DNA of 64,000 nucleotides from an uncultured Actinomycetota bacterium. GTDB taxonomy: Bacteria > Actinomycetota > Humimicrobiia > Humimicrobiales > Humimicrobiaceae. How positions within the stretch are numbered: the first letter of the stretch is position 1; the number at the start of each line of letters is the position of its first letter. The notes under the pieces were generated by a model, which made no database searches, had not been told where the DNA came from, and saw nothing but the letters and a program-made list of their open reading frames with translations. The stretch lies in assembly GCA_964563645.1 (NCBI GenBank), contig CAZLXJ010000055.1, forward strand, positions 6,920-70,919, given 5' to 3'. Made by a program: the position numbers and the translations under genes. Shown piece after piece: positions 11,825 to 62,106 of this stretch.

Positions 11825-13009
11825 TTAGAGCCGGTCGATTACATCATCTCTTTCTATTAAATTTGCAAGGGTAACCTTATTTTCCCCAAATTTATTTGAT
11901 ATCGCATCAATCGCTTCAGTAAGATTTTCATTCCCATTATTTTTATTGTATATCAGGCTGCCTGGTTCGGATATACGCTCTAAGCCGCTTACCGATGCTC
12001 CTATAAGCCTTATTTTATTATGGTTTAGATCCATGGACTTTAAAAGTGATACTGTTGCCCTGTATATGTCAAAAATACCATATGTATTTTCACCAAGCAC
12101 CGCCCTCCTGGTGATTGTCCTGAAATTGGAAAATCTTAATTTAAGCGTAATTATTTTACCCCTGTATCCCCTGTACTTCATATTTATGGCGATTTTTTGT
12201 GAAAGAAGGAGAAGTGTGGATTTGAGTGTAGAAAGATCATTAATATCCTTACGGTATGTTATCTCCCGGCCTATCGACTTTACTTCAGGATTCGGATTAA
12301 CTTTTCTATTGTCTATTCCATTAGACATATCATGCATCATCCTGCCAGGTTCGCCGAATCTTGCTTCAATAATTTCCACAGGAGTATCTGCCAGATCTCC
12401 AATAGTATATATACCCATGGATTCAAGTTCTTTATTCGTAACATGTCCGACGCCATGGATATATGATACCGGAAGAAGCCTTATCTTTCTTAGTATCCTG
12501 CCTGTATTCTCCAGCACAGTCAGGCCGTTGGGTTTTCCCATGTTTGAGGCAAGCTTTGCGAGAAATTTATTTGGTCCCAACCCGGCAGAAGATGTAAGGT
12601 TGGTACTTTCGTAAATCCTGCCTTTTATTTTCTTTGCTATTTCAAGTGCATCTCCAAATAACTTTTCACAACCGGTAACGTCGAGGAAACCTTCATCGCA
12701 CCCTATAACCTCTACAAGCGGGGTAAAATTGTAGAATATGCTTCTTATTATCATTGATTCCCTCAAATATTTTTCCATGTTAACAGGTATAAATAAACCT
12801 TCTGGGCAGAGTTTTTTTGCCCTGCTGATAGGCATTCCGGAATGGATACCGTATTTCCTTGCCTCGTAAGAGGCGGTAGAGACCACACCCCTGTTTAACG
12901 GCCCTCCGACAATAAGAGGTTTATTTTTGTATCCGGGATTATCCCTCTGTTCTATCTGGGCAAAGAATGCATCCATATCTACATGGATTATTTTTCTTAA
13001 CTTTTCCAA
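11825..13009 (-). CDS. dinB: DNA polymerase IV (Y-family)
   Basis: IHVDMDAFFAQIE, DEGFLDV, KSIGREITY. Full length at 394 aa. Its start overlaps the dnaE stop by 13 nt. Confidence 0.9.
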   Translation of the reverse strand: MEKLRKIIHVDMDAFFAQIEQRDNPGYKNKPLIVGGPLNRGVVSTASYEARKYGIHSGMPISRAKKLCPEGLFIPVNMEKYLRESMIIRSIFYNFTPLVEVIGCDEGFLDVTGCEKLFGDALEIAKKIKGRIYESTNLTSSAGLGPNKFLAKLASNMGKPNGLTVLENTGRILRKIRLLPVSYIHGVGHVTNKELESMGIYTIGDLADTPVEIIEARFGEPGRMMHDMSNGIDNRKVNPNPEVKSIGREITYRKDINDLSTLKSTLLLLSQKIAINMKYRGYRGKIITLKLRFSNFRTITRRAVLGENTYGIFDIYRATVSLLKSMDLNHNKIRLIGASVSGLERISEPGSLIYNKNNGNENLTEAIDAISNKFGENKVTLANLIERDDVIDRL

Positions 13010-16000
13010 ACCGGCTCCGATCCTGCAAGTATGTTATATCTTAGAGCCTGGTTCCTACAGCTCCTTTTTATTTTTTTTAAAAGTGCCAGATCAATTGCTT
13101 CTCTGCCTGTGATGGTAATATCCCCATCCCTCTGTTCAGGATTTCCTCTTACGATCATAGCAGTGCTCTCTGTAAGTGTCTTGAAATATTTACTGTAAAC
13201 AGGAGGGAAAAACACCGATTCAAATATTCCGTCAATGTCTTCCATGGTGCAGAAGAGCATTTTTTTCCCATCTTTTGTATTTTCAACCCTCCGGTTAAGG
13301 ACAATTCCTGCACAATTAATATCACCGGGGCGGCTATTACCTATATTTTTGATAATTTTGGAGAAGTTGCCGCTTCTGCAGGGATTGAATTTCTCAAGCT
13401 CTTCCCTGAAATAGTCAAGAGGGGGATGGCTTATGCAGAATCCAAGTATTCTGAATTCTTCCTCAATTTTTTCTTCAATGCTGACATTGTTCTTTTTATT
13501 ACATTCAAGTTTAAATACAGGGTTTAATGCTGGGTGAGAGCGGCCGCAGGGAAAGTGTTTGAAGGTCCTGAGATAATAGAATAGTGCAAGGAGATTCTTC
13601 CTGCCTGTTCCGGTATAATCAAATCCTCCAACCCTTATCAGGTTTTCAACAGCATTTTTATTAAGAGAGGACTTCTTGATACACCTGTGATAAAAATCAA
13701 AAAAATCCTTAAAGCAGCCATTTTTTGCCCTTTCTTTTATTATAAGATTTGCCCCTGATGGACCAAGGTCCCTTATGGAAGTTAGCGGGACCCTTATGGC
13801 CTTCCCGTTATCTTCGGGGCTGAATCTGTATTTACTCTTATTTACATCGGGGAGCTTAAGGGCCAGCCCCAGCCTCCGGGCTTCTTCTATGTATTGTGCC
13901 TGCCTGTAATATCCGGAATTATTTGAAAGTATTGAAGATATGAGCTCTGCTGGAAAATATACCTTTAAGTAGGCTATTTTATAAGATATTTCACTGTAGG
14001 CGGCGGCGTGGGCCCTGACAAAGCCGTAACTTGCGAACCTGGATATTAAATCAAAAATACGCCTGGCAAAATCAAGGGAATAGCCTTTTTGAAGAGAACC
14101 CCTGATAAATTTCGACCTCTGCTTTTTCATTTCAGGCGAAGAAAGTCCGGTGATTGCTTTTCGAAGTACATCTGCTTCACTGAATGAGTAGCCTGCTATT
14201 TCTATTGCTATCCTCATAACCTGTTCCTGGTAAAGGATTACCCCATAGGTATCTTTTAAAATGGGTTCAAGATCTTTATGAATAAATACAGTATCTTCTC
14301 TTCCGAATTTTCTTTCTATAAAATTTTTGACCATGCCTGACCGCTGCGGGCCCGGCCGGTAAAGTGAGATAAGAAGGGTAATATCATCAAGGTTTGATGG
14401 TTTTAGCTTTTTTGCCAGAGACCTGATGCCGGAGCTTTCGAGCTGGAATACTCCCAGTGTATTTCCGCCCTTTATAATATCAAATACTTTTTTATCGCCA
14501 TGACTTATTTCAGATATATTTATATCAATATTCCTCCGCTTTTTAAGACTTTTGATTACATCACTTATAAGGCTGAGGCTTACAGAGCTTATAAGGTCTG
14601 TTTTTATAAGGCCGAGTCTTTTAATGCTTTCCATATCGTATTGTGTCATGATCCCTCCTGTATCCGAAAGAGTAAGCGGAACGGTTCCGGTAAGATCTCT
14701 GCGGGATATAATAAATGCAGATGGATGCAATGACATGTGTTTTATGTAATTTTCTATTTTTAAGGCGCAGGATAAGATATTCACAGGGATTCTGCCTTTC
14801 CCGAGAAGACCAGCAGCTTCTTTTATACTTTCCGGCGAAGCCCTCCCGGATGAAAAGCTTTCAGGTAAATCCGGCCTCTTTAATATATCATCGGTCTCAA
14901 ATTTTCCAAGTCCTGCTATCCTTCCTGCCTCTCTTACGGCTGCCCGCGGCCTTAGAGTTGAGAATAGGCATACTCTGGAAACATTTTCTGCCCCATATCT
15001 GGAAGAAAGGTAGGACAGCAGCTCACTTCTTCTCCTGCTGCAGATATCAATATCTATATCAGGGGGGCTTTTTCTTCCGGTGTTTAAAAACCTTTCAAAA
15101 TAAAGATTCTGCTCTACGGGGTCGACATCTGATATTCCCAGAAGATAGGATACAAGGCTTCCGGCAGCAGAACCTTTTCCGCATATGGGTATGTTTCTTT
15201 CCCTGGCAAATCCTGCCATGTCTGCGATTATAAGAAAATATCCGCTGAAACCTGTTTTTTCAATTATTTTGAGTTCCTTCTCAAGTCTGTAAAAGTACCT
15301 GGCATCAGGATAACACCCGAACCTCCGTATAAACCCCGTCATGCAGAGTTTTCTAAGGTAGCCTCCTGGACTGGTCTCTCCTGCAGGTATCTCAAAAAGG
15401 GGAAGCCAGGTCTTTCCCAGGTCCAGGTCCAGGTTGCATTTGCCGGATATGATAGAAGTATTTGATATGGCTTCCGGGATGTCCCGGAACATTGAAATAA
15501 TTTCTTCAGAAGACTTAAAATAATCTTCCCCGCCCGTTATAATCCTGAAAAAGGGATCTTTTTTCATACCCATTGATTTTAATTTGGAAAGATACCTGTA
15601 TATGCAGTAGCTTTTTTTATCTATGTAACGGACATTATTTGTAGCCACAGGAGGCAAATTGTTGGAAAGTGCAAAATTTGTGATTACTTCTGAAAGGTTA
15701 TTGTAAAAGCCGGTCTTTTGGAAGGGGACTCTCTGAATTTCTATATAAAAATCGCCTTCGAATATTTCAATACAGCGGTATGCAGCTTTTAAAGCCCCGT
15801 ACCTGTCTCCATTTTTAAGCAGATCGGGTATCTTGCCGTTAGGGCATCCGCTTAGCCCGATAAGACCTTCGCTGTTTTTGCTTAAATACTTAATATCTAT
15901 TGAAGGAACAGAGTGTTTCTTTTTCAGGTGGGACCTGCTTACTATGCGGCAGAGATTTTTATACCCCCTGAGATTTTTTGCCAGAAGTATCATGTGGGAC

Positions 16001-16227
16001 AGGCCGTCTATGTCAGACAAACATATTTCACATCCTATAATTGGTTTTATATTTGCGGATAAGGCACTTTCATAAAACTTGACCGCTCCACCCATCATAT
16101 ATCTGTCTGTCAGCGCAACAGCCTTCATATTGAGACCGGCTGCTGCTTTTATAAGGTCTCCTATCCTGACGGCGGATTCCATCAGGCTGTATTCGCTGTG
16201 CACATGAAGATGTGTAAAAGGAGTCAC
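12997..16227 (-). CDS. dnaE: DNA polymerase III alpha subunit, short (1076 aa) DnaE-family protein (DnaE2/DnaE3-like)
   Basis: PHP domain HLHVHSEYS, catalytic PPDIDIDI, C-terminal OB fold. No long C-terminal tail. Confidence 0.9.
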   Translation of the reverse strand: MTPFTHLHVHSEYSLMESAVRIGDLIKAAAGLNMKAVALTDRYMMGGAVKFYESALSANIKPIIGCEICLSDIDGLSHMILLAKNLRGYKNLCRIVSRSHLKKKHSVPSIDIKYLSKNSEGLIGLSGCPNGKIPDLLKNGDRYGALKAAYRCIEIFEGDFYIEIQRVPFQKTGFYNNLSEVITNFALSNNLPPVATNNVRYIDKKSYCIYRYLSKLKSMGMKKDPFFRIITGGEDYFKSSEEIISMFRDIPEAISNTSIISGKCNLDLDLGKTWLPLFEIPAGETSPGGYLRKLCMTGFIRRFGCYPDARYFYRLEKELKIIEKTGFSGYFLIIADMAGFARERNIPICGKGSAAGSLVSYLLGISDVDPVEQNLYFERFLNTGRKSPPDIDIDICSRRRSELLSYLSSRYGAENVSRVCLFSTLRPRAAVREAGRIAGLGKFETDDILKRPDLPESFSSGRASPESIKEAAGLLGKGRIPVNILSCALKIENYIKHMSLHPSAFIISRRDLTGTVPLTLSDTGGIMTQYDMESIKRLGLIKTDLISSVSLSLISDVIKSLKKRRNIDINISEISHGDKKVFDIIKGGNTLGVFQLESSGIRSLAKKLKPSNLDDITLLISLYRPGPQRSGMVKNFIERKFGREDTVFIHKDLEPILKDTYGVILYQEQVMRIAIEIAGYSFSEADVLRKAITGLSSPEMKKQRSKFIRGSLQKGYSLDFARRIFDLISRFASYGFVRAHAAAYSEISYKIAYLKVYFPAELISSILSNNSGYYRQAQYIEEARRLGLALKLPDVNKSKYRFSPEDNGKAIRVPLTSIRDLGPSGANLIIKERAKNGCFKDFFDFYHRCIKKSSLNKNAVENLIRVGGFDYTGTGRKNLLALFYYLRTFKHFPCGRSHPALNPVFKLECNKKNNVSIEEKIEEEFRILGFCISHPPLDYFREELEKFNPCRSGNFSKIIKNIGNSRPGDINCAGIVLNRRVENTKDGKKMLFCTMEDIDGIFESVFFPPVYSKYFKTLTESTAMIVRGNPEQRDGDITITGREAIDLALLKKIKRSCRNQALRYNILAGSEPVWKS

Positions 16228-16264
16228 TTAATCCTCACCTGTTTCCATTTTTCTAAAAGAGCGC

Positions 16265-16885
16265 TTACCGCAATGCCCTCTGGACGGCTACCACTTTCCC
16301 CTGGATTAAAGGATCTGATTCCATTATCATGGGCATATATTCCGGATTAGAAGACCTGAGTTCAACATATTTTTCTTTTCTGTAAAATCTTTTTACTACA
16401 GCTTCGTCACCTATAAGCGCTACCACTATGTCACCATTATCTGCTACTGGTTGTGATCGTACTGCTATAATATCCCCGTCGAGTATATGGTCTCCGACCA
16501 TGCTGTCTCCATGAACCCTGAGAGCAAAATCAGCATTTCCCCTTATTATATCGGCAGGGAAGGGGATACGGTCTTCAATGTTTTCTTCAGCAAGGACAGG
16601 CCTTCCTGCGGCTATCCTTCCTATGAGAGGGAGATACAGGGCTTCCTTTTCGGTACCCCGGCCCAGTGTCTCCAGGGCCTTCTTTGTTAGTTTTATGGAG
16701 CGGGCAGATGATCTTCTTTCTATATATCCCTTTCTTTCCAGTGAATACAGGTGATCGGAAATCCCCCTCGGGGAATTGATATAAAGCATACCTGCAAGCT
16801 CCCTTATGGAGGGAGGATAGCTGTTTGCCAGCATATAATTGTATATTTTTTTAAGAACCAGATGCTGTCTGCCGGTAAGTCTCAA
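16265..16885 (-). CDS. lexA: LexA-family repressor, paralog 2 (first gene of the lexA-dnaE-dinB unit)
   Basis: Winged HTH (SIRELAGMLYINSPRGISDHLYSLERKGYIER), AAG cleavage site, GDSM serine and VKRF lysine. TTG start with a GGAGG RBS. Confidence 0.85.
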   Translation of the reverse strand: MRLTGRQHLVLKKIYNYMLANSYPPSIRELAGMLYINSPRGISDHLYSLERKGYIERRSSARSIKLTKKALETLGRGTEKEALYLPLIGRIAAGRPVLAEENIEDRIPFPADIIRGNADFALRVHGDSMVGDHILDGDIIAVRSQPVADNGDIVVALIGDEAVVKRFYRKEKYVELRSSNPEYMPMIMESDPLIQGKVVAVQRALR

Positions 16886-45444: not shown

Positions 45445-45915
45445 ATGTCAAAACCCAGAAAAAAAAGAAATGTACTGTATCCGCCCAGAATGGATTACTT
45501 TGCACCCCATGGCTGCAGGCCGTTAAAGAAGATCAATGAAGTTATACTGACAATTGATGAATATGAATCAATAAGACTGGCTGATCATGAAAACCTGAAG
45601 CAGGAAGATGCTGCCAAAAAGATGAATATATCCAGACCAACTTTTACAAGGCTTGTAGATGCTGCAAGGAAAAAAATTGCAGATGCAATGGTTAACGGAA
45701 AGGTAATCAGAATAGAGGGCGGAAACTATATTTTTTTAAGGAACAGAATGAGGTGCGTGGCATGCGGCAATATATGGGATACTGTCATCAGCAACAATGA
45801 TGAATTCTGTCCGTCCTGCAACAGTGAAAATATTGAGGATCTGGGAAGAAGATTCGGAAGAGGGAGGGCTCGCGGGCGCGGTTCCGGAAGAAAACAGGGA
45901 GGGCCGGCCAGATAA
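45445..45915 (+). CDS. DUF134 (UPF0251) predicted DNA-binding protein, copy 1, with zinc ribbon and RG-rich tail
   Basis: LTIDEYESIRLADHENLKQEDAAKKMNISRPTFTRLVDAARKKIADAMVNGKVIRIEGG, CVACG..CPSC, then GRRFGRGRARGRGSGRKQGG. Confidence 0.8.
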   Translation: MSKPRKKRNVLYPPRMDYFAPHGCRPLKKINEVILTIDEYESIRLADHENLKQEDAAKKMNISRPTFTRLVDAARKKIADAMVNGKVIRIEGGNYIFLRNRMRCVACGNIWDTVISNNDEFCPSCNSENIEDLGRRFGRGRARGRGSGRKQGGPAR

Positions 45916-46012
45916 AGGTCTTTTCTCTGGTTAAAGATCTGTTTATCAAATAGTTCTTTATTGATTAATTATGGGCATATACTCAAAATATGTTATAATG
46001 TGTTAAAAAATC

Positions 46013-46861
46013 ATGAATATGAAAAACAATAAAATAAAGCTCACAATAATAATTGATAATTATGTAAGGTCCTCGGGATTAAAGGCAGAACACGGCTGGT
46101 CCATGATGATAGAAAACGGAAAGGAAAAGATACTATTTGATACCGGAGCGAGCGATCTTGTATTACATAATCTGAGATACCTTGGTTTTGAACCGCAGAT
46201 AATTGATAAAATTTTCATAAGCCATGGACATTATGATCATACAGGCGGACTGTATGATATTACAAAACTGGCAGAAAAAGAGGTAGAAATTTTTGCGCAT
46301 GAAAATATATTTGAAAAAAAATACAAGCTGACAAAACAATTAAAGAAAAAATATATAGGCATACCTTACAACAGGGAAAAATATATTGAAAATGATGTAA
46401 AGTTCAGACTTGAGAGAGGCTCAATAAGGATTTCTGAAAATATATATTCAACGGGAGAGATCGAAAAAACAGTATCATTTGAAAAACCAGAAATAAATAT
46501 GATTAAGAAAAAGAACGGCATATATATAAATGACAGCCTTATAGATGATACCGGTATAATAATTGAAACTTCAAGAGGAGCGGTACTTATTACAGGATGT
46601 GCTCATAGAGGAATAATAAATATAATAAAACAGGCGCAGAGATTATCGGGGAAAGACTCATTTTTTGCCGTAATAGGAGGTTTCCACCTCTTTAATAAAG
46701 ATAAAAAGTATATTGGCAAAGTTATTTCCGAATTAAGAAAAATAAAGATTGATAAAATTATACCATCTCACTGTACAGGCTATAATGGATATTTTGAAAT
46801 AAAGAAGGAGTTTGGTACAAAATGCGAGTTCGGATATACCGGTAAAAAGATTATTCTATAA
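46013..46861 (+). CDS. MBL-fold metallo-hydrolase (COG1237-like)
   Basis: LTIIIDN..GLKAEHGWS..LFDTG..ISHGHYDHTGG..GCAHRG..PSHCTG. Confidence 0.8.
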   Translation: MNMKNNKIKLTIIIDNYVRSSGLKAEHGWSMMIENGKEKILFDTGASDLVLHNLRYLGFEPQIIDKIFISHGHYDHTGGLYDITKLAEKEVEIFAHENIFEKKYKLTKQLKKKYIGIPYNREKYIENDVKFRLERGSIRISENIYSTGEIEKTVSFEKPEINMIKKKNGIYINDSLIDDTGIIIETSRGAVLITGCAHRGIINIIKQAQRLSGKDSFFAVIGGFHLFNKDKKYIGKVISELRKIKIDKIIPSHCTGYNGYFEIKKEFGTKCEFGYTGKKIIL

Positions 46862-46892
46862 ATAAAATTATAACTCTGAAGAAAGGCGGAAC

Positions 46893-47276
46893 TTGAAAAT
46901 AGCAATACCAGTTGAAAGCGGCAGGGTGGCAGAACATTTTGGCAGGTGCCCAAAGTTTATTGTTGTAGATATATCAGATGGAAAAATTAAAAGCAGGGAA
47001 AACATTGACAACCCCGGACATAGCCCCGGCTTGCTTCCTGATTATTTTAACAGTATGAATATAGGTACTGTTGTCGCCGGCGGAATGGGTATGAGGGCAA
47101 AAGAATTATTTCAGAATAAAAAAATTAATGTAATGCTGGGAATAAAAGGGAAGATAGATGATGTGATAGCAGACCTTTTAAATAATACCCTGAATGCTGG
47201 TGAGAGTCCCTGCATACCGGGTTCAGGAAAGGGTTATGGGCTGGAAAAAAATGAGTGTGACCATGAAAGAGAATAA
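46893..47276 (+). CDS. NifX/NifB-family (dinitrogenase FeMo-cofactor-binding domain) small protein, copy 1
   Basis: MKIAIPVESGRVAEHFGRCPKFIVVD..VVAGGMGMRA. TTG start. Confidence 0.8.
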   Translation: MKIAIPVESGRVAEHFGRCPKFIVVDISDGKIKSRENIDNPGHSPGLLPDYFNSMNIGTVVAGGMGMRAKELFQNKKINVMLGIKGKIDDVIADLLNNTLNAGESPCIPGSGKGYGLEKNECDHERE

Positions 47277-47297
47277 CTAAAGGAAAGGGAGGCCAAT

Positions 47298-47735
47298 ATG
47301 AGTGCAAGGCCATTTATAGATAAAATCGTAACGACAGTGCCTCTGTATGTTTATTATAAACCCCATGGCATACCTCTTGAAAAGCTGAAAGAGGAGACAC
47401 TTAACCTTGAAGAGATTGAAGCTTTGAACCTTAAAGACAGCCAGGACCTCGACCAGAAAAGCGCAGCTGAAAATATGGGAATATCCAGATCTACTTTTCA
47501 AAGGCTTTTAAAATCTGCAAGGAAAAAAATAATAAATTCCATCATAGAGGGGAAAGCAATAAAGTTTGAAGGTGGAAATTACATCAAAGGTAAAGAAATA
47601 AAGAGGACAAAATGTCTGAAAGGCATTTATCATTACAGGATAAGGAGTAATGATATAGGTGAAAAAGAGCAGAAATATAAAATAAGTAAAATAAGATGTC
47701 CTGAATGCGGTAAAAGATTAATCGATTTTATTTAA
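47298..47735 (+). CDS. DUF134 (UPF0251) predicted DNA-binding protein, copy 2, with C-terminal zinc ribbon
   Basis: LNLEEIEALNLKDSQDLDQKSAAENMGISRSTFQRLLKSARKKIINSIIEGKAIKFEGG. CPECGK near the C-terminus. Confidence 0.8.
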   Translation: MSARPFIDKIVTTVPLYVYYKPHGIPLEKLKEETLNLEEIEALNLKDSQDLDQKSAAENMGISRSTFQRLLKSARKKIINSIIEGKAIKFEGGNYIKGKEIKRTKCLKGIYHYRIRSNDIGEKEQKYKISKIRCPECGKRLIDFI

Positions 47736-47766
47736 TGATATTTATACGACAGTATAAGGGGGGAGA

Positions 47767-48159
47767 ATGATAGTAGCAATAACTTCAAGCGGTAAAACAC
47801 CGGAATCTTCAGTAGATCCCAGATTCGGAAGGTGTCCATACTATATATTATATGATACTGATAAGGAGACTTTTGAAGCAATAGATAATTCGGGCCAGAG
47901 TGCTTATGGCGGTGCCGGGGTACAGGCTGCACAGGCTGTATCAGACATGAATGCAGATGTACTCATAACAGCCAATATAGGGCCGAATGCCTTCCGTGTT
48001 CTTGATTCAGCAGGGATAAAGGTATATTCCGGGGTATCGGGTACCGTAGAAAAGGCAATAGATGATTTTAAAAATGGTTCACTGAAACCGGTCTCTTCAC
48101 CAAATGTGGGGCATAAGCACGGAATAGGGCCCGGTACCGGAAATGGAGGCCAAAGATAA
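47767..48159 (+). CDS. NifX/NifB-family small protein, copy 2
   Basis: VDPRFGRCPYYILYD..VLITANIGPNAFRVL..GIKVY. Confidence 0.8.
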   Translation: MIVAITSSGKTPESSVDPRFGRCPYYILYDTDKETFEAIDNSGQSAYGGAGVQAAQAVSDMNADVLITANIGPNAFRVLDSAGIKVYSGVSGTVEKAIDDFKNGSLKPVSSPNVGHKHGIGPGTGNGGQR

Positions 48160-48997
48160 ATTGAAGATTTCCATAGCAAGCGGGAAAGGCGGAACGGGAA
48201 AGACTTCTGTAGCGGTAAGTATAGCCAGGTCAATTGGATATTGCCAGTTTTTTGATTATGATGTCGAAGCGCCGAATGCAAGTTTTTTCCTGAAACCTGA
48301 TATAGAAAATGTAGAAAAAGTTACAATGAGGCAGCCCTATTTTCTATCCGGTACCGGTGCTGATTTTAGCAAATGTGTGGATTTCTGCCGTTTTAACGCT
48401 ATTGCATATGTAAAAGGGAAGGTTGTATTTTTCCCCGAACTGTGCCACGGGTGCGGCGGTTGTATGCTGGTAGGCCCGCCTGGCGCCGTAAAAGAAAAAG
48501 ACGTTGAGGTAGGAAAAGTTATGAGGGGAAAGGCAAGTCCGGGAATTGATTTTATAATGGGGGATCTCAACCCGGGAAGCCTCCGTACAGTAACCGTGCA
48601 GGCGAAACTTGATGAATATATTGATGAAAGCCGGACAGTAATAATGGACTGTCCTCCAGGGACATCATGCCCCATGGTTGCAGCTGTAAAAAACAGTGAT
48701 TTCTGCATCCTCGTTACTGAGCCCACACCCTTTGGCCTGAATGACTTGGAAATATCCGTAGAAGTTTTAAAAAAACTGGGAATACCTCATGGAGTTATAA
48801 TAAACCGCGATGGGATTGGTGATGATTCGGTCGAGAAGTTCTGTAATAAAAAAAGCATAAAGATTCTTGAAAAAATACCCAATGACATAAATATTGCAAA
48901 AGCATATTCGGAGGGCATAACCATACCTGAATATAATAAGGAATGGATAAAAAGGTTTATGGCAGTGGTAGACCTGATAGAAAAGGAAAATAAATGA
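48143..48997 (+). CDS. MinD/ParA-type P-loop ATPase with degenerate ferredoxin insert
   Basis: Deviant Walker A SGKGGTGKTS. The insert retains only CVDFC and CHGCGGC. Overlaps the upstream and downstream genes. Confidence 0.8.
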   Translation: MEAKDKLKISIASGKGGTGKTSVAVSIARSIGYCQFFDYDVEAPNASFFLKPDIENVEKVTMRQPYFLSGTGADFSKCVDFCRFNAIAYVKGKVVFFPELCHGCGGCMLVGPPGAVKEKDVEVGKVMRGKASPGIDFIMGDLNPGSLRTVTVQAKLDEYIDESRTVIMDCPPGTSCPMVAAVKNSDFCILVTEPTPFGLNDLEISVEVLKKLGIPHGVIINRDGIGDDSVEKFCNKKSIKILEKIPNDINIAKAYSEGITIPEYNKEWIKRFMAVVDLIEKENK

Positions 48998-49863
48998 AAC
49001 AGATTGCTATAATAAGTGGAAAAGGCGGTACCGGAAAGACAACAATAACTTCAAGTTTCATAAAACTTGCAGGAGACCAGGTATCAGTGGATTGTGATGT
49101 AGATGCCGCAAATCTACATATAATGCTCTCACCGGTAATCAAAGAAAGCAATGATTTCATCGGCGGCGAAGTAGCGAAGGTAACAGGGGAATGCATACAG
49201 TGCGGTCAATGTGAGCAGGCCTGCAGATTTATGGCTATAAGTGATTCTGAGACAGACATAAAAATAGATCCGGTCAAATGTGAAGGTTGCGGGGTTTGTG
49301 AAGAAATATGCCCCGTAGACGCAATAGAGCTATTTTCTGAAAAACAGGGAACCTATTATATATCCGAGACTAAATACGGCCCGATGGTTCATGCCAGGCT
49401 GGATCCAGGAGCAGAAAACTCGGGGCTTATAGTATCAAGGATAAGGGAGATTGCTGAAGATATTGCAATAAAGAATAATAAGAAGGCAATATTAATAGAC
49501 GGTGCTCCCGGTATTGGATGTCCTGTTATTTCTTCATTAAATGGAGTGGACTATTCACTTATAGTAACCGAGCCGACACTTTCGGGAATTAGTGATTTTA
49601 AAAAAGCACATGAATTAACAAAATTTTTTAATGTAGAAACTTTTGTATGCATTAATAAATCAGATCTTAATGAGAAAAACAGCCGTATCATAGCTGATTA
49701 CTGCAGTGATAACGGCCTTACACTTCTTGGGGAGATACCTTATGATGAAATGGTCCCTGCAGCACTATCCAGAAAGAAATTTATAATAGATAATCCAGAA
49801 AGTCCTGCTGCAAAGAAGATTATTGAGTTCTGGGACAAGTTAAAGAAGATACTTTTTTCTTAA
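48994..49863 (+). CDS. MinD/ParA-type P-loop ATPase with intact 2x[4Fe-4S] ferredoxin insert
   Basis: SGKGGTGKTT. CIQCGQCEQAC and CEGCGVCEEICP motifs. ATGA overlap with the preceding ATPase gene. Confidence 0.8.
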   Translation: MKQIAIISGKGGTGKTTITSSFIKLAGDQVSVDCDVDAANLHIMLSPVIKESNDFIGGEVAKVTGECIQCGQCEQACRFMAISDSETDIKIDPVKCEGCGVCEEICPVDAIELFSEKQGTYYISETKYGPMVHARLDPGAENSGLIVSRIREIAEDIAIKNNKKAILIDGAPGIGCPVISSLNGVDYSLIVTEPTLSGISDFKKAHELTKFFNVETFVCINKSDLNEKNSRIIADYCSDNGLTLLGEIPYDEMVPAALSRKKFIIDNPESPAAKKIIEFWDKLKKILFS

Positions 49864-50039
49864 AATATAGAAATCCTGGAATAAAATTTTAATTTACTCC
49901 TTAATGTTATTGTAAATTTTATCTGAATTTATTTACATTAAAAATATTTTTTTCAAACATGTTAAAAAAGTAATATGCTCTTTTTACCAATAAAGAGACT
50001 ATTTAGTATATTAAAAAATTAAACCAGGGAGGCCGGATA

Positions 50040-51605
50040 ATGACAGGGCCAATAGCAGGAGATCCCTTATCCGGGATGGAAGGCCATCTTAGCATAGAGG
50101 TGGATGTTGAAAGTGGAGTAGTATCGGATGTACGGAGTTCAGCTGAAATATTTAAAGGCTGGAATATTGTATTGAAGGAAAGAAATCCTCTGGATGCACC
50201 CGTAACTGTTCAGAGGATATGCGGAACCTGTCCCCAGTCCCACGGTTATGCTTCAGCAATATGCCTGGATGATGCTCTTGGGACAAAACCTCCTTCAAAT
50301 GGCAGGATAATCAGGAATCTCATACTTGGCTCAAATTTTATACAATCCCATATTTTTAATTTTTATCATCTTTCAATGCTGGATTATGTGGACATAAAAG
50401 CAGTACTTAAATACAGGGGTTCAGATTCCAGACTGATAAAAATAAGAGACCGGATTAAACATTATATTGATTCGGGAGAATATTATACAAGATCATCATT
50501 AATTTCAGTATGTAAAGGTGACTATATAGAAGATTATGAAATGAATATCAAATCAATAGACAATTATTTAAAGGCTCTTGAAATAAGAAGAAAATCAAAT
50601 GAAATACTCTGTATATGGGGCGGTAAGATGCCTTATATACAGACATTTTCTCCCGGACGTGTGTACGTAAAACCTGATATTGGAAATATTAAAGCTTTCA
50701 AAGCAGGTCTGGCCGATATTCAGGCTTTTATAAATAATATTTATATTCCGGATATTATCGATATTGTAAGAATATTTCCTGAGTGGCTAAAAATAGGAAA
50801 AGGTAATGGAAATTTCTCTTCCTGCGGAGGTTTTCCGATGGATGACGGCAATAGTAAATATTTATTTGATTCCGGTGAATATATTGAAGGAGAAATGAGA
50901 GATTTTAATCCCGAAGCTGTTACGGGTGATGCCAGATATTTAAAATATCCTGCAGCCCCGGATATTCATTTACTTAAAGAAAATAATGTATATGATACAA
51001 ATAAAAATAATGACAGTTTACGGATAAAAGCACAGGGATATAAGGAAAAAGCTTCAGAAACCGGTCCACTGGCAAGAATTATTATTTCATATATGCAAAA
51101 AAGCCCCGGAAGTGAAATAAAAAGTCTGGTGGATAGTATTCTGGAAGTACATGGTGCCGGGAAAGAAATACTTGACTCAACAATGGGGAGACATATAACC
51201 CGTGCACTTGAATGCAAAATTATAGCAGATAATATGCAGAAATGGGTAGATGAGCTCATTGAAGGGAAATCAGTATACAATGAGTCTATAAAAATACCGG
51301 TAGAATCAGAAGGTAAGGCATTAGCAGAAGTACCCAGGGGTTCTCTTGGACACTGGATGACTATTAAAAATAAAAAAATAGACAGTTACCAGGTATTTTC
51401 ACCTTCAGCAAGGACCATGAGCTCCAGAGACGATAATAAGGATATGAGCACCTTTGAACAGGCATTACTGGGAACACCTATGCGGGACCCTGAAAATCCA
51501 ATTGAAGCAGTCAGGGTAGTAAGATCATTTGACCCCTGTATTTCATGTATTATAAAAACTATTGATAAAGGTAAAGAAATATCAAAATTTAAAATTAAAA
51601 TATGA
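50040..51605 (+). CDS. [NiFe]-hydrogenase large-subunit homolog (no adjacent small subunit)
   Basis: GMEGHL, RICGTCPQSH, SHIFNFYHL, EVPRGSLGHW, SFDPCISC. GGGAGG RBS. Confidence 0.85.
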   Translation: MTGPIAGDPLSGMEGHLSIEVDVESGVVSDVRSSAEIFKGWNIVLKERNPLDAPVTVQRICGTCPQSHGYASAICLDDALGTKPPSNGRIIRNLILGSNFIQSHIFNFYHLSMLDYVDIKAVLKYRGSDSRLIKIRDRIKHYIDSGEYYTRSSLISVCKGDYIEDYEMNIKSIDNYLKALEIRRKSNEILCIWGGKMPYIQTFSPGRVYVKPDIGNIKAFKAGLADIQAFINNIYIPDIIDIVRIFPEWLKIGKGNGNFSSCGGFPMDDGNSKYLFDSGEYIEGEMRDFNPEAVTGDARYLKYPAAPDIHLLKENNVYDTNKNNDSLRIKAQGYKEKASETGPLARIIISYMQKSPGSEIKSLVDSILEVHGAGKEILDSTMGRHITRALECKIIADNMQKWVDELIEGKSVYNESIKIPVESEGKALAEVPRGSLGHWMTIKNKKIDSYQVFSPSARTMSSRDDNKDMSTFEQALLGTPMRDPENPIEAVRVVRSFDPCISCIIKTIDKGKEISKFKIKI

Positions 51606-51671
51606 AAGATAAGAAAGAATAGGAAATAATGGTACAGGTACCTGTTTTTAAATTAATAGTGAATTTATGAA

Positions 51672-52013
51672 ATGCACGAATATTCCATAACATCTTCAAT
51701 AATTAATATCCTTGAGGATATTGTAAAAAAAAATAATTTGAGCAGTGTAAAAAAAGTAAAGTTTGAATTAAGTCCGATTTCAAATATTGAACCCGAATCA
51801 ATAAGATTCTATTATGATTTCTTAACTAAAGATAACAGCAGATTAAAAGGGGCAAAGCTTATGTTTAGTGTTATAGATTTTAAACTGGAATGCAGAAAAT
51901 GCGGAAAACTTTTTAGATCAAAAGAGCTTTTACCTGTATGTCCTGCATGCGGCAGCCGCATGATAAAAGTAAGAGAATCGGATGACATAAGGATAATTTC
52001 AGTGGAAGCCTGA
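51672..52013 (+). CDS. hypA: Hydrogenase nickel-insertion protein HypA
   Basis: MHE N-terminus, CRKCGK..CPACGS zinc site, 113 aa. Confidence 0.85.
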   Translation: MHEYSITSSIINILEDIVKKNNLSSVKKVKFELSPISNIEPESIRFYYDFLTKDNSRLKGAKLMFSVIDFKLECRKCGKLFRSKELLPVCPACGSRMIKVRESDDIRIISVEA

Positions 52014-52588
52014 TTTAATTACAGGGCCGGATAAAAAGATCCATGCCGGCAGCATAACAGACTCATATTTTGAATGAGTGCAGTGTAACCCGTCGTATTT
52101 ATAACCAGAATGGGAATCTCAGGGAGATAATGGATATGGAGTTTTCTATGGAGTATATGAGATATCCCATAAGAGAAAAATAGACATTTGTAAGGCTGCT
52201 GCGACATACCTGGATTTGGCAGGATGGAAGAAACCGGCAATATTAAGGGGCATCCATCCCAAAGACAAGTTTTTTTATTGACTTAAGTAGAATTTATAAG
52301 ATAAAATAAATAATATATTTAAATATAAGAATTACCAGATTTATAATTATCTGCACATTTTTTAGGGTTATTAGCAATAAATTGCTATTGTATAAGTAAT
52401 ATTATAGATTTTATATATTAATAAAAATATTGCTAATGATATTTTTAAAGAAGATGAAAGGATTTTTTTTAAAAATAGTATAAATTTTATTATAGCTTAG
52501 TTTAAAAACATTACTCATATAATAATTAGAGTAAAAGTAGTATTAATAAAAGTTAGTATTTATAAAAAAATTTGTGTAAATATATTAT

Positions 52589-52614
52589 AAGTCGAGGTAG
52601 TTCTCGACTTTTTT
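52589..52614 (+). terminator. Stem-loop plus T-run immediately upstream of the rny RBS (terminator, attenuator or 5' stabiliser)
   Basis: AAGTCGAG-GTAGTT-CTCGACTT followed by TTTTG. Lies 6 nt before CAGGAGG. Confidence 0.45.
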
Positions 52615-52634
52615 GTTTATCAGGAGGTTAAAGA

Positions 52635-54176
52635 ATGGATATATGGATAACACTTTTAATAGTTGTAATTTCTATTATTGTAGGATTTTTTATAGGGTTT
52701 TCCTACCGTAAATATATTATTGATAACAAGGCAGGATCTGCTGCAGAAAAAGCATCTATGCTTTTAGAGAATGCAAAAAAAGAGGCCAATACGATAAAAA
52801 AAGAAGCTATTCTGGAGGGCAGGGAAGAGATACAGCAGCTTAAGAGCTTTACCGAGGATGACATAAGAAAACAAAAATCCGAGTTAAAGAAGATAGAGGA
52901 CAGGTTAATAAGCAGGGAAGAGTCTCTTGAAAAAAAGGCCGTTTATCTGGATAAAAAAGAGCAATCAACGGGAAACAGGATAACTGAACTGGATAAAAAG
53001 AATAAAAAACTGGATGAAATATTAAAGAAGGAGATTTTAAAGCTGGAGGCAATTGCCGAACTTACCAGGGAAGAAGCAAGAGCCATACTGACAAAGAAAA
53101 TTGAAGATGAAGCTAAATATGAAGCAGCCAAGAAGATAAGAGAAATAGAAGCAAAACTTAAGGAGGATTCAGATAAAACGGCAAGAAAAATAATCTCGCA
53201 GGCTATACAGAGATGCGCAATAGACCATGTTAGCGAGACGACTGTTTCTGTTGTAAATCTTCCGAATGATGAGATGAAGGGAAGGATAATAGGAAGAGAA
53301 GGAAGAAACATAAGAGTATTCGAGAATCTTACAGGGATTAACATAATAGTAGACGACACGCCCGAAGCAGTCATACTGTCTTCATTTGATCCTGTTAGAA
53401 GGGAAATAGCAAGGGTTACACTTGAAAACCTGATATTGGATGGAAGGATACACCCTGCCCGCATAGAGGAGATGTATGAAAAGGCAAGCAAGATAATAAA
53501 TAACGAGATAAAACTTGAGGGAGAGCAGGCTGTATTTGATACAGGTATATCAGGATTGAACCAGGGGATTATAAAAGTGCTTGGAAGATTAAAATACAGG
53601 ACAAGCTATGGACAGAATGTTCTCCTGCATTCAAAAGAAGTCGCATATATTGCTGGAATAATAGCTGCCGAACTGGGACTGAACATCAAAAAAGCAAAAA
53701 GGGCGGGACTCTTACACGATATTGGGAAAGCATTGACTCATGATATTGATGGTTCCCATGCTATAATTGGTGCAGAACTTGCCAGAAGGCTTCATGAAGA
53801 TGAAGAAATATGTCATGCAATAGAAGCACACCATAGTGAGGTGGAAGTTAAATCTATCCTTGATGTGATAATCCAGTCAGCTGATCAGATATCGGGTGGA
53901 AGGCCCGGAGCCCGTAGGGAAACTATTGAAAGTTATGTTAAAAGACTCGAATCACTTGAAAGGATAGCTGCAGAATTTAAAGGCATAGAAAAAGCTTTTG
54001 CAATTCAGGCTGGCAGAGAGATAAGGGTAATGGTAAGGCCGGAGGAAGTAGATGAGGACATGGCAATGGTAATTGCCAGAGATATAGCCAATAAGATTGA
54101 AAGTGAGATGGAGTATCCGGGACAGATAAAGGTTACTGTAATAAGAGAAAGCCGGGCAATAGAATATGCAAAATAG
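52635..54176 (+). CDS. rny: Ribonuclease Y
   Basis: N-terminal TM helix, coiled coil, KH (GRIIGREGRNIR) and HD (LLHDIGK) domains. Confidence 0.95.
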   Translation: MDIWITLLIVVISIIVGFFIGFSYRKYIIDNKAGSAAEKASMLLENAKKEANTIKKEAILEGREEIQQLKSFTEDDIRKQKSELKKIEDRLISREESLEKKAVYLDKKEQSTGNRITELDKKNKKLDEILKKEILKLEAIAELTREEARAILTKKIEDEAKYEAAKKIREIEAKLKEDSDKTARKIISQAIQRCAIDHVSETTVSVVNLPNDEMKGRIIGREGRNIRVFENLTGINIIVDDTPEAVILSSFDPVRREIARVTLENLILDGRIHPARIEEMYEKASKIINNEIKLEGEQAVFDTGISGLNQGIIKVLGRLKYRTSYGQNVLLHSKEVAYIAGIIAAELGLNIKKAKRAGLLHDIGKALTHDIDGSHAIIGAELARRLHEDEEICHAIEAHHSEVEVKSILDVIIQSADQISGGRPGARRETIESYVKRLESLERIAAEFKGIEKAFAIQAGREIRVMVRPEEVDEDMAMVIARDIANKIESEMEYPGQIKVTVIRESRAIEYAK

Positions 54177-60166: not shown

Positions 60167-61459
60167 ATGATAAAAGAAAAAGCGCTTTTAATATTCATTG
60201 AATTTATAGGTAATACAAAAAAAGAAGGCAGGGTAAAGAGAGGGAAATATTCAAATAAAGATAATATTGAAGAGTTATCCAACCTTACAATTAGTGCAGG
60301 TGCAGAAATTGAAAAAGTCCTTACTTATAAACAGGAAAAACCAAATCCAAAATATTTTATCAGCAGCGGAAGGCTTAATAATATAAAGGGTATTTTAGAA
60401 GAAGAAAATATTGAACTTATTATTTTTGATGATGAAATAACTCCCACACAGCAGAGAAATCTGCAGGGTAAATTAAATAAGAAGGTTCTGGACAGGACTG
60501 CGCTTATCCTTGATATATTTGCGCAGAGAGCAAATAGCAGGGAAGGTAAATTACAGGTTGAGCTTGCGCAATTAGATTATCTTCTCCCAAGATTGACGGG
60601 AAGGGGAATAGAACTTTCAAGACTTGGCGGCGGAATAGGTACGAGGGGCCCCGGAGAGACAAAACTTGAGGTAGATAGAAGGAAAATTAGAAATAGAATT
60701 ACCAGTCTGAAAAAAAAGATTGATAAAATATCTGTTCAGAGGGAAACACAGAGAAAAAGCAGGGAAAATAATATTTTTCAGATATCACTTGTAGGATATA
60801 CGAACAGTGGTAAATCCACTCTTCTAAATTCTCTTACAAATTCTGAGGTTTATGTAAAAAACATGCTTTTTTCGACTCTTGATTCTACTACAAGAAAGTT
60901 AAATCTTGATATAAGACCAGAAGTTTTAATTACAGATACAGTGGGTTTTATTGATAAGCTCCCGCACCAGCTTATAGCAGCTTTTAAATCTACACTGGAG
61001 GAAGTAAGGATATCGGATCTAATGCTTATTATAGTTGATGCGAGCAATAATAATTTTGAATCAAATATATTAAGCGTGAAAAAAGTTTTGAAGGAAATTG
61101 ATGTATGGAGAAAACCTTTTTTTATAGTATTTAATAAAATTGACAAAATCCACCCTGAACTGTTAAAAAGACTGCGTTTCAAATACAGAAATTCAATTTT
61201 TGTTTCTGCTTTAAAAGGGACTGGCCTGGAAGAAATAAAATCAAAGATTAAAAAAATTATTGAAAAACATAATATGAATATAACAATAAGAATACCCTAT
61301 AACAATCAGAAAATTATTTCTTTTATATATGATAAATGCCATATTCTGGACAGGAAAGATTCAGAAACCGGTATTTTATTTGATCTTAATATAGAACCAA
61401 AATATAAAGACCAGCTTTTGCCGTTTATTTATAATAAAGAAAGAATAAAGATTTCTTAG
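60167..61459 (+). CDS. hflX: GTPase HflX
   Basis: LDIFAQRANSREGKLQVELAQL, GYTNSGKST, DTVGF, NKID. Confidence 0.9.
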   Translation: MIKEKALLIFIEFIGNTKKEGRVKRGKYSNKDNIEELSNLTISAGAEIEKVLTYKQEKPNPKYFISSGRLNNIKGILEEENIELIIFDDEITPTQQRNLQGKLNKKVLDRTALILDIFAQRANSREGKLQVELAQLDYLLPRLTGRGIELSRLGGGIGTRGPGETKLEVDRRKIRNRITSLKKKIDKISVQRETQRKSRENNIFQISLVGYTNSGKSTLLNSLTNSEVYVKNMLFSTLDSTTRKLNLDIRPEVLITDTVGFIDKLPHQLIAAFKSTLEEVRISDLMLIIVDASNNNFESNILSVKKVLKEIDVWRKPFFIVFNKIDKIHPELLKRLRFKYRNSIFVSALKGTGLEEIKSKIKKIIEKHNMNITIRIPYNNQKIISFIYDKCHILDRKDSETGILFDLNIEPKYKDQLLPFIYNKERIKIS

Positions 61460-62106
61460 AAATATTTTCTTATTATACCTATGACTTTTCCAAGGATTTT
61501 TATTTCCCTGACTACTACCGGTTCCATATGGTCATTTTCAGGTATTAGCTTTATTTCTGATTCACCTTTATAAAATCTTTTAACAGTAGCTTCATCTTCA
61601 AGCAGCGCAACTACTATCTCTCCGTTTATTGCTGTATTTTGCTTTCTTACTATTACCAGATCCCTGTCAAGGATGCCTGCGTTTACCATGCTGTCACCAT
61701 GGACGTTAAGCATAAATACATCGTGATTCCCCTTTACAAAATCCGGTGTTAAGGGAAAATAGTCTTCTATATTTTCTTCGGCTAGAATAGGTTTACCTGC
61801 AGCAACATTACCGATAATCGGAACAAATATTAGATTACCTGAGTGCAATTCAATGTTTTCATGTGCAGCTCTGTCTGTAGCTGTAAGTGAAAGTGCGCGG
61901 GGTTTTGACGCATCTCTTTTAAGATATCCCAATTCTTCCAATTTTTTTAAATGAGAATGAACAGTTGCAGATGAACTTAAGCCAACTGCTTTTGCAATCT
62001 CTCTTACCGATGGGGGATATCCTTCCTGTTTTATCTTGCTATTTATAAACTCCAGTATCTTTCTTTGCCTGAGGCCAATATTTGAATTTTGATCAGTGAA
62101 TTTCAT
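61456..62106 (-). CDS. lexA: LexA repressor, paralog 1 (canonical Gram-positive type)
   Basis: SVREIAKAVGLSSSATVHSHLKKLEELGYLKR, VAAGKP cleavage site, HGDSM, VKRF. The stop overlaps the hflX stop by 4 nt (convergent). Confidence 0.9.
   Translation of the reverse strand: MKFTDQNSNIGLRQRKILEFINSKIKQEGYPPSVREIAKAVGLSSSATVHSHLKKLEELGYLKRDASKPRALSLTATDRAAHENIELHSGNLIFVPIIGNVAAGKPILAEENIEDYFPLTPDFVKGNHDVFMLNVHGDSMVNAGILDRDLVIVRKQNTAINGEIVVALLEDEATVKRFYKGESEIKLIPENDHMEPVVVREIKILGKVIGIIRKYF

Follow-up and report, generated by a model that had tools for sequence, protein, structure and literature searches.

The genome of an uncultured Actinomycetota bacterium was analyzed over a contiguous stretch of 64 kb (contig CAZLXJ010000055.1, positions 6,920 to 70,919; referred to here as the window), which contains an orphan gene for the large subunit (LSU) of a [NiFe]-hydrogenase. 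The strongly diverged, 521-aa protein of group 1 lineage (50040-51605, plus strand) is followed by hypA, the gene for a nickel metallochaperone. Comparison with related genomes showed that three of the five genes of the ancestral operon were deleted in place in this lineage. The LSU gene and hypA are the remnant of an operon for a group 1 membrane-bound H2-uptake [NiFe]-hydrogenase, exported by the twin-arginine translocation (Tat) pathway, that was reduced in place, after which the LSU evolved at an accelerated rate. This sequence of events was the main point absent from the original prediction, an earlier note made from the letters of the window. With a probability of roughly 0.6, the LSU is best explained as a retained, repurposed or functionally reduced relic, an unprocessed cytoplasmic protein that would bind nickel or the NiFe cofactor, work together with HypA and have little or no hydrogenase activity.

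The predicted open reading frame with all four Ni-Fe cysteines was reproduced, and the Pfam family PF00374 spans the whole protein (E 1.5e-113; 380.9 bits against a gathering threshold of 25.8), with residues 40-504 aligned to profile positions 2-506 of 508. The motifs RICGTCPQSH, EVPRGSLGHW and SFDPCISC are all present, and C61, C64, C500 and C503 together with H68 make up the signatures RxCGxCxxxH and DPCxxC. The top matches among structures in the PDB are 1frf_L and 1h2a_L (E ~1e-92), and the nearest structural relatives are group 1b, 1a and 1c enzymes. Divergence is evident from the match scores, as the window LSU reaches 318 bits against 1frf_L compared with 456 bits for a sister protein. 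The NF033181 equivalog model ('nickel-dependent hydrogenase large subunit') yields 490.1 bits, short of its cutoff of 600, versus 704, 701 and 694 bits for the sisters P0008, P0002 and P0021, which all exceed it. The predicted flanks were likewise recovered. On the 5' side, a 176-nt non-coding spacer separates the LSU gene from that of a MinD/ParA-type ATPase (48994-49863) into which a 4Fe-4S ferredoxin domain is inserted, and on the 3' side follow hypA (51672-52013, plus strand), a non-coding gap measured at 621 nt and rny at 52635. HypA is an intact protein of 113 aa whose PF01155 match (E 1e-26) is accompanied by an intact MHE Ni-binding N-terminus and both CxxC pairs.

Three operon genes were deleted in place

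The closest LSU homologues are at most 57% identical to the window protein, and the nearest relatives among GTDB representatives are two uncultured Actinomycetota metagenome-assembled genomes (MAGs) at 56-57% identity. Gene context was inspected for seven relatives (P0002, P0003, P0008, P0009, P0021 and L014, with P0008 and P0009 each on two contigs). All seven encode a small subunit (~364 aa, PF01058 and PF14720), an LSU (~519 aa) and a cytochrome b (~200 aa). Wherever the contigs reach, a HycI-type protease (~159 aa) and hypA (113 aa) come next; both are present in four relatives, and in L097 HycI is visible before the contig ends. The sister small subunit begins with a Tat-like signal (SRKKFLK), is anchored through its C-terminus and matches a curated model, as do the sister cytochrome b (TIGR02125/PF01292) and protease (TIGR00072). 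Because of the Tat signal, the anchor, the cytochrome b and the protease model matches, the ancestral enzyme must have been an exported, membrane-bound group 1 uptake hydrogenase encoded in the order small subunit, LSU, cytochrome b, endopeptidase and hypA.

Several relatives share the position of this operon in the genome. In the sister locus L004 it is preceded, as in the window, by tyrS and genes for DUF134, metallo-beta-lactamase, NifX-like, DUF134, NifX-like, MinD-like and MinD-like/ferredoxin proteins, and followed by rny, a HATPase gene and spoVS. The locus L008 has tyrS, the operon, rny, the HATPase gene, spoVS, miaB and miaA in common with the window. Where the relatives have the gene for the 364-aa Tat-signal small subunit, the window contains the 176-nt spacer (49864-50039), and the genes for cytochrome b and the HycI-type endopeptidase are replaced by a spacer of 66 nt (51606-51671). 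Neither spacer holds a recognisable remnant. Searched against the window by tblastn, the three sister proteins (small subunit, cytochrome b and HycI) yielded noise (E > 0.5) save for one match of 36 residues at 22% identity (E 0.007), and local DNA alignment of both spacers with the sister operon gave scores within the shuffle null. Only the region of the ribosome-binding site (RBS) aligns: the GGGAGG element 7 nt 5' of the LSU start codon (50027-50032, plus strand) corresponds to the junction of the small- and large-subunit genes in the sister operon.

Pfam annotation of the whole contig detected no small subunit, cytochrome b, protease or hypB-F genes in the 64 kb and identified housekeeping genes only in the remainder. 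The components expected of a group 1 uptake hydrogenase, a Tat-signal Fe-S small subunit, a cytochrome b acceptor and a HybD/HycI endopeptidase, are thus missing from both the locus and the window. These results agree with the original prediction that the LSU stands alone and that neither hypB-F nor a maturation protease accompanies it. The hypB-F genes are not linked to the operon in the relatives either and may be located elsewhere in the genome. An assembly artefact as the source of the orphan arrangement was ruled out, as the same junctions between genes were found in each of five independent assemblies, which represent four or more samples and are 99.7-99.9% identical. The arrangement is known from this single lineage, and the sample names ML8 and MLSed suggest a Mono Lake-type habitat. 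One further metagenomic contig, L012 (JGI 3300001533 MLSed_10068630), encodes a 551-aa LSU variant (P0122) in which an unrelated N-terminus of 65 aa is joined at 'IFKGW'. The DNA of L012 matches the window from locus position 318 onward only, and P0122 is probably the product of a chimeric metagenome assembly and not a real fusion.

A promoter and terminator scan gave signals not above background, and an Rfam scan of 49700-52800 returned no match. The spacer between the two genes includes a small palindrome, ACAGGTACCTGT, followed by TTTTT (51630-51650), which is below the strength required by the terminator scan and may be either a leftover of the deletion junction or a weak terminator. The 621-nt gap between hypA and rny was considered as a further deletion scar and rejected, since a comparable gap, including a conserved box that resembles a promoter and a hairpin, is also found in the relatives. 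Within this conserved non-coding stretch 5' of rny (52014-52634 in the window, 10571-11143 in L004 and 11056-11377 in L008), the promoter-like block is TTTTTTTATTGACTTAA (~52271-52292). The hairpin, AAGTCGAGGTAGTTCTCGACTT, is located together with a T-run at 52589-52616, directly before the RBS and ATG of rny. These elements suggest that rny is preceded by a leader of ~350 nt with an attenuator-like hairpin.

Accelerated evolution and altered residues of the orphan subunit

Relative-rate, open-frame simulation and polymorphism tests were chosen because synonymous sites are saturated at these evolutionary distances. In a Tajima relative-rate test with L008 as the outgroup, 122 changes were specific to the window LSU and 33 to that of L004 (p = 9e-13), which corresponds to an approximately 3.7-fold acceleration. 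Across 28 combinations of sister and outgroup, the window LSU consistently accumulated 116-149 changes versus 23-41, and comparisons between sisters were clock-like. The control genes also behaved in a clock-like manner (window/sister: tyrS 22/21, rny 19/29, HATPase 26/29, spoVS 3/2), and the rate of hypA was not accelerated (9/9). In pairs of genomes with intact operons, the LSU is slightly more conserved than tyrS (83 versus 80% identity, and 64-66 versus 61%). At the tyrS identity of 73% found for the window, an LSU identity of ~77% would be expected, whereas 52-54% was observed. Many changes affect positions that are otherwise fixed. Among 124 near-invariant columns, defined as at least 98% conserved in 118 relatives, the window LSU deviates in 33, while the median of the relatives is 0 and their maximum is 8. 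Since these columns changed at 27% compared with ~45% overall divergence from the sisters, some constraint on the protein persists.

The residues that were kept include the first coordination shell of the metal site. E14-G15-H16 with the proton-gate Glu, R59, C61, C64 and H68 are all present, as are R433-G434-x-L436-G437-H438-W439, R463-D464 with the catalytic Arg, and D498-P499-C500-x-x-C503. Within the N-terminal cysteine pair (codons 61-64, C-G-T-C; 50220-50231, plus strand), Thr63 replaces a Val found in 117 of the 118 relatives (V63T), the counterpart of gas-channel Val74 of Desulfovibrio fructosovorans by alignment with the PDB match (bioRxiv 10.1101/2025.11.19.689374). The structural Mg2+ site, which is formed by the mature C-terminus, lost both of its side-chain ligands. 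In E. coli HybC these are Glu42 and His552 (PMC5902676); at position 42, which has the same number in both proteins, the window LSU has Asn (E42N; 50163-50165, plus strand) where Glu occurs in 118/118 relatives, and the His is replaced by Lys506 (H506K). The latter change lies in codons 500-506 (C-I-S-C-I-I-K; 51537-51557, plus strand), directly after the C-terminal cysteine pair, and also alters the endopeptidase cleavage site, for which the rule is DPCxxCxxH/R (PMC2670836). The non-canonical processing site noted originally, with Lys three residues after the last Cys (DPCISCIIK) and a 15-aa tail behind it, is confirmed and unique to the window LSU, as all 117 motif-bearing relatives have His.

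The tail itself, TIDKGKEISKFKIKI (51558-51602, plus strand), is homologous to the sister tails IIDNGKEISRFKINT and, with 10 of 15 residues identical (67%), better conserved than the protein as a whole (57%). In about a dozen homologues among P0085-P0119 (~503-504 aa), the His of DPCxxCxxH is the last residue; these are naturally 'pre-processed' group 1-like large subunits without an extension.

Three further changes, T11S, R12G and I13M, are immediate neighbours of the proton-gate Glu and fall within the loop equivalent to HoxG residues 24-28 at the centre of the small-subunit interface (PMC9886862). Further invariant residues were altered by M37I, R39K, H107N, A113M, H199Y, G207R and G427A, and V-P-T-T-W-N-x-x-P, the strand preceding the catalytic Arg, became S-P-S-A-R-T-x-x-S. 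The Asp to Ser replacement of the Arg-partner Asp at position 103 was rejected as a change specific to the lineage, as Ser is invariant in the whole clade. No new cysteine cluster that could replace the Fe-S subunit was identified in the LSU, the two novel Cys residues (158 and 262) being scattered and without a motif. A 15-pair inverted repeat (G-T pairs allowed) with a T-rich stretch was observed within the reading frame (50608-50643, plus strand; codons 190-201); it covers the altered motif GGKMPY with H199Y and could be due to chance or represent a quasi-palindrome.

These substitutions bear on the proposal that the LSU belongs to a working hydrogenase whose small subunit, protease and HypB-F proteins are encoded elsewhere in the genome, with Lys as a tolerated variant of the cleavage site. 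In its favour, the LSU possesses all four cysteines as well as the catalytic Arg and the proton-gate Glu, hypA was retained, and the window provides a view of only 64 kb of the genome. Some tolerance at P1 was reportedly also found by Theodoratou and colleagues in 2000 in cleavage-site mutagenesis of E. coli HycE. Nevertheless, the proposal is considered very unlikely, and the suggestion in the original prediction that the partners are encoded elsewhere is unlikely: the cognate genes are located at this very locus in 7/7 relatives and were deleted here, and residues that should be retained in a functional heterodimer and are found in all 118 relatives (T11, R12, I13, both Mg ligands and other invariants) have since been altered, in addition to a Lys that none of the 117 relatives shares. 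When metagenomes were scanned for the sister small subunit, the 80 best matches included no sequence from samples carrying the window organism; given that the scan covered the best 80 matches and that the inclusion of those samples is unverified, this is weak evidence.

Retention of the subunit versus decay

The preferred explanation of a retained, functionally reduced relic can be put as a series of events. Three genes were lost from the middle and front of the operon while its location stayed the same. Without its Tat-bearing partner, the LSU would no longer be exported and would stay in the cytoplasm, and without an Fe-S relay and the hand-off to cytochrome b and quinone, H2 oxidation could not be coupled to respiration; both steps follow from established hydrogenase biology. 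The LSU is very probably also unprocessed, given that the locus has no protease, that the P1 His is now Lys and that the Mg2+ side-chain ligands are gone. In this reading, the LSU is not a respiratory hydrogenase. After partner loss, a burst of change occurred at sites that are invariant in working enzymes, and the first shell of the metal site, the RBS, the tail and the reading frame were kept. Most likely, the LSU persists under a different and narrower selection as a cytoplasmic protein that remains precursor-like for good. Along with HypA, whose gene is co-transcribed, it would continue to bind nickel or, provided that HypB-F are encoded at another site in the genome, the complete NiFe cofactor. 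It might hold or buffer nickel as a partner of HypA, or at most be a very weak 'minimal' H2-activating protein. Isolated large subunits can hold NiFe(CN)2CO, although their H2 turnover is very low (PMC8159394), and unprocessed mutant large subunits do not bind the small subunit (PMC7294309).

A stronger version of this idea is that the LSU is a natural stand-alone subunit locked in a precursor-like state and selected as a cytoplasmic partner of HypA, where it would act as a reservoir for nickel or the NiFe cofactor, or as a minimal H2-activating or H2-sensing protein. The present data leave this specific role an unlikely one. If true, the laboratory 'minimal hydrogenase' would have an equivalent in nature, one that stands near the beginning of repurposing like that behind HupK/HoxV-like scaffolds.

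The main competing explanation is plain decay, in which the LSU is a non-functional relic whose frame is open by chance or because premature stops would cut expression of the useful downstream hypA, which may serve another Ni enzyme elsewhere. The erosion of the operon to two genes, the acceleration, the loss of invariant positions that include functional sites and the score below the NF033181 cutoff would all be expected under this explanation. As hypA has only weak signals of its own and lies 66 nt from the LSU gene, it probably depends on read-through transcription. Plain decay is a real possibility, although judged rather unlikely on the following evidence. Neutral simulation starting from the sister gene retained an open frame with a probability of 0.008 at 15% amino-acid change and of 0.0005 at 23.5%, values that are conservative since indels were ignored; in all five assemblies the frame is free of stops and frameshifts. 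Single-nucleotide polymorphisms (SNPs) between strains are 4 synonymous and 1 non-synonymous in the LSU gene, no worse than the 10/7 in flanking housekeeping genes, and the only SNP in hypA is synonymous. All first-shell residues, the RBS and the tail were kept, and the invariant columns changed less than the protein overall. Moreover, the lineage removed other genes of the operon cleanly, so that the LSU gene could have been lost as well. Taken together, the simulated and observed frames, the SNP ratio, the residual constraint and an intact, unaccelerated hypA argue for a constraint on the LSU that was shifted or narrowed instead of free decay.

Several points nevertheless weigh against retention of a metal-binding relic. 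The changed strand before the catalytic Arg and the lost invariant His residues may impair metal binding or cofactor insertion, and an excess of changes at the surface that once contacted the small subunit was seen for a single loop. The polymorphism test comprises five SNPs (binomial p ~0.02-0.04), and selection may have kept the frame open in part to avoid polar effects on hypA rather than to preserve the protein. Finally, with 64 kb seen, other parts of the genome could encode a small subunit, a protease, HypB-F or a second hydrogenase, and the last of these would by itself account for the retention of hypA.

Neighbouring genes, known systems and implications

The original prediction had raised a link between the LSU and the proteins encoded upstream. 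In both the window (45445-49863) and L004, tyrS is separated from the hydrogenase locus by a conserved cluster consisting of genes for DUF134, metallo-beta-lactamase, NifX-like, DUF134 and NifX-like proteins and two MinD/ParA ATPases with 4Fe-4S ferredoxin inserts. One could imagine that the orphan LSU gained new partners among these ATPases and NifX-like proteins, as the genes are adjacent and on the same strand and the second MinD protein, with two 4Fe-4S motifs, could in principle relay electrons. Such an association is highly improbable. The identical cluster stands in front of a complete operon in L004, and L006 and L008 lack it, with tyrS directly adjoining the gene for the small subunit; therefore, the adjacency predates the orphan state and is independent of it. 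The cluster genes are also ordinarily conserved (57-77% to L004), and a 176-nt gap separates them from the LSU gene. Nor is there support for the idea that the neighbours act as an archaeal Mrp/MinD-type HypB, since both are CbiA/ParA ATPases with ferredoxin inserts that gave no match to HypB models.

Elsewhere in the window, two LexA paralogues are encoded, one at 61456-62106 (minus strand) and the other at 16265-16885 within the region 11825-16885 (minus strand). The latter gene adjoins genes for a Y-family polymerase (IMS) and a second DNA polymerase III alpha subunit (PHP/DnaE-type), and the arrangement resembles the lexA-imuB-dnaE2 kind of cassette for SOS mutagenesis.

Among characterized systems, the window LSU is most similar to the group 1 membrane-bound, periplasmic-facing uptake hydrogenases, such as those of D. 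fructosovorans (1FRF) and D. vulgaris MF (1H2A), the [NiFeSe] enzymes and E. coli Hyd-2. It belongs to the same fold family with a full-length PF00374 domain and shares with them the four Ni-Fe cysteines, the proton-gate Glu, the catalytic Arg, the C-terminal extension and an operon-linked hypA, and by synteny it is orthologous to the LSU of complete operons. In contrast to these enzymes, its locus has no small subunit, cytochrome b or protease, Lys stands for His, the Mg-ligand Glu is lost, 33 near-invariant positions are changed and the NF033181 cutoff is not reached. A large subunit without its small subunit is also represented by isolated HoxC and HoxG/preHoxG of Ralstonia eutropha (the 'minimal hydrogenase'); those are laboratory isolates from organisms with the full enzyme, whereas the orphan state in the window is genomic and has lasted long enough for the sequence to change extensively. 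HupK/HoxV is another large-subunit homologue without a small subunit. Most of the Ni-Fe cysteines are missing from it, and its gene is part of a complete hydrogenase cluster, while the window LSU keeps four cysteines and has no such cluster around it. HupK/HoxV is a non-catalytic scaffold for Fe(CN)2CO assembly and works without a small subunit (PMC12134894). The large subunits of regulatory (group 2b) H2 sensors undergo no proteolytic processing (PMC7294309); they natively end at His without an extension and, paired with a small subunit, transmit their signal to a histidine kinase. The window LSU differs from them by its 15-aa extension, the replaced His, the lack of an adjacent small subunit or sensor kinase and its best family and PDB matches, which are to group 1.

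If only decay is at work, the locus represents ordinary operon erosion. Were the LSU truly maintained and loaded with metal, it would offer a natural experiment on the abilities of a [NiFe] catalytic subunit without partners. It would then separate the residues needed for the heterodimer, processing and the Mg site from those needed for metal binding and exemplify how a catalytic subunit can be repurposed as an accessory protein. Annotations as 'hydrogenase large subunit' are routinely used to infer H2 metabolism from MAGs, and in this case an uncultured, deep-branching Actinomycetota-like organism would wrongly be credited with H2 oxidation.

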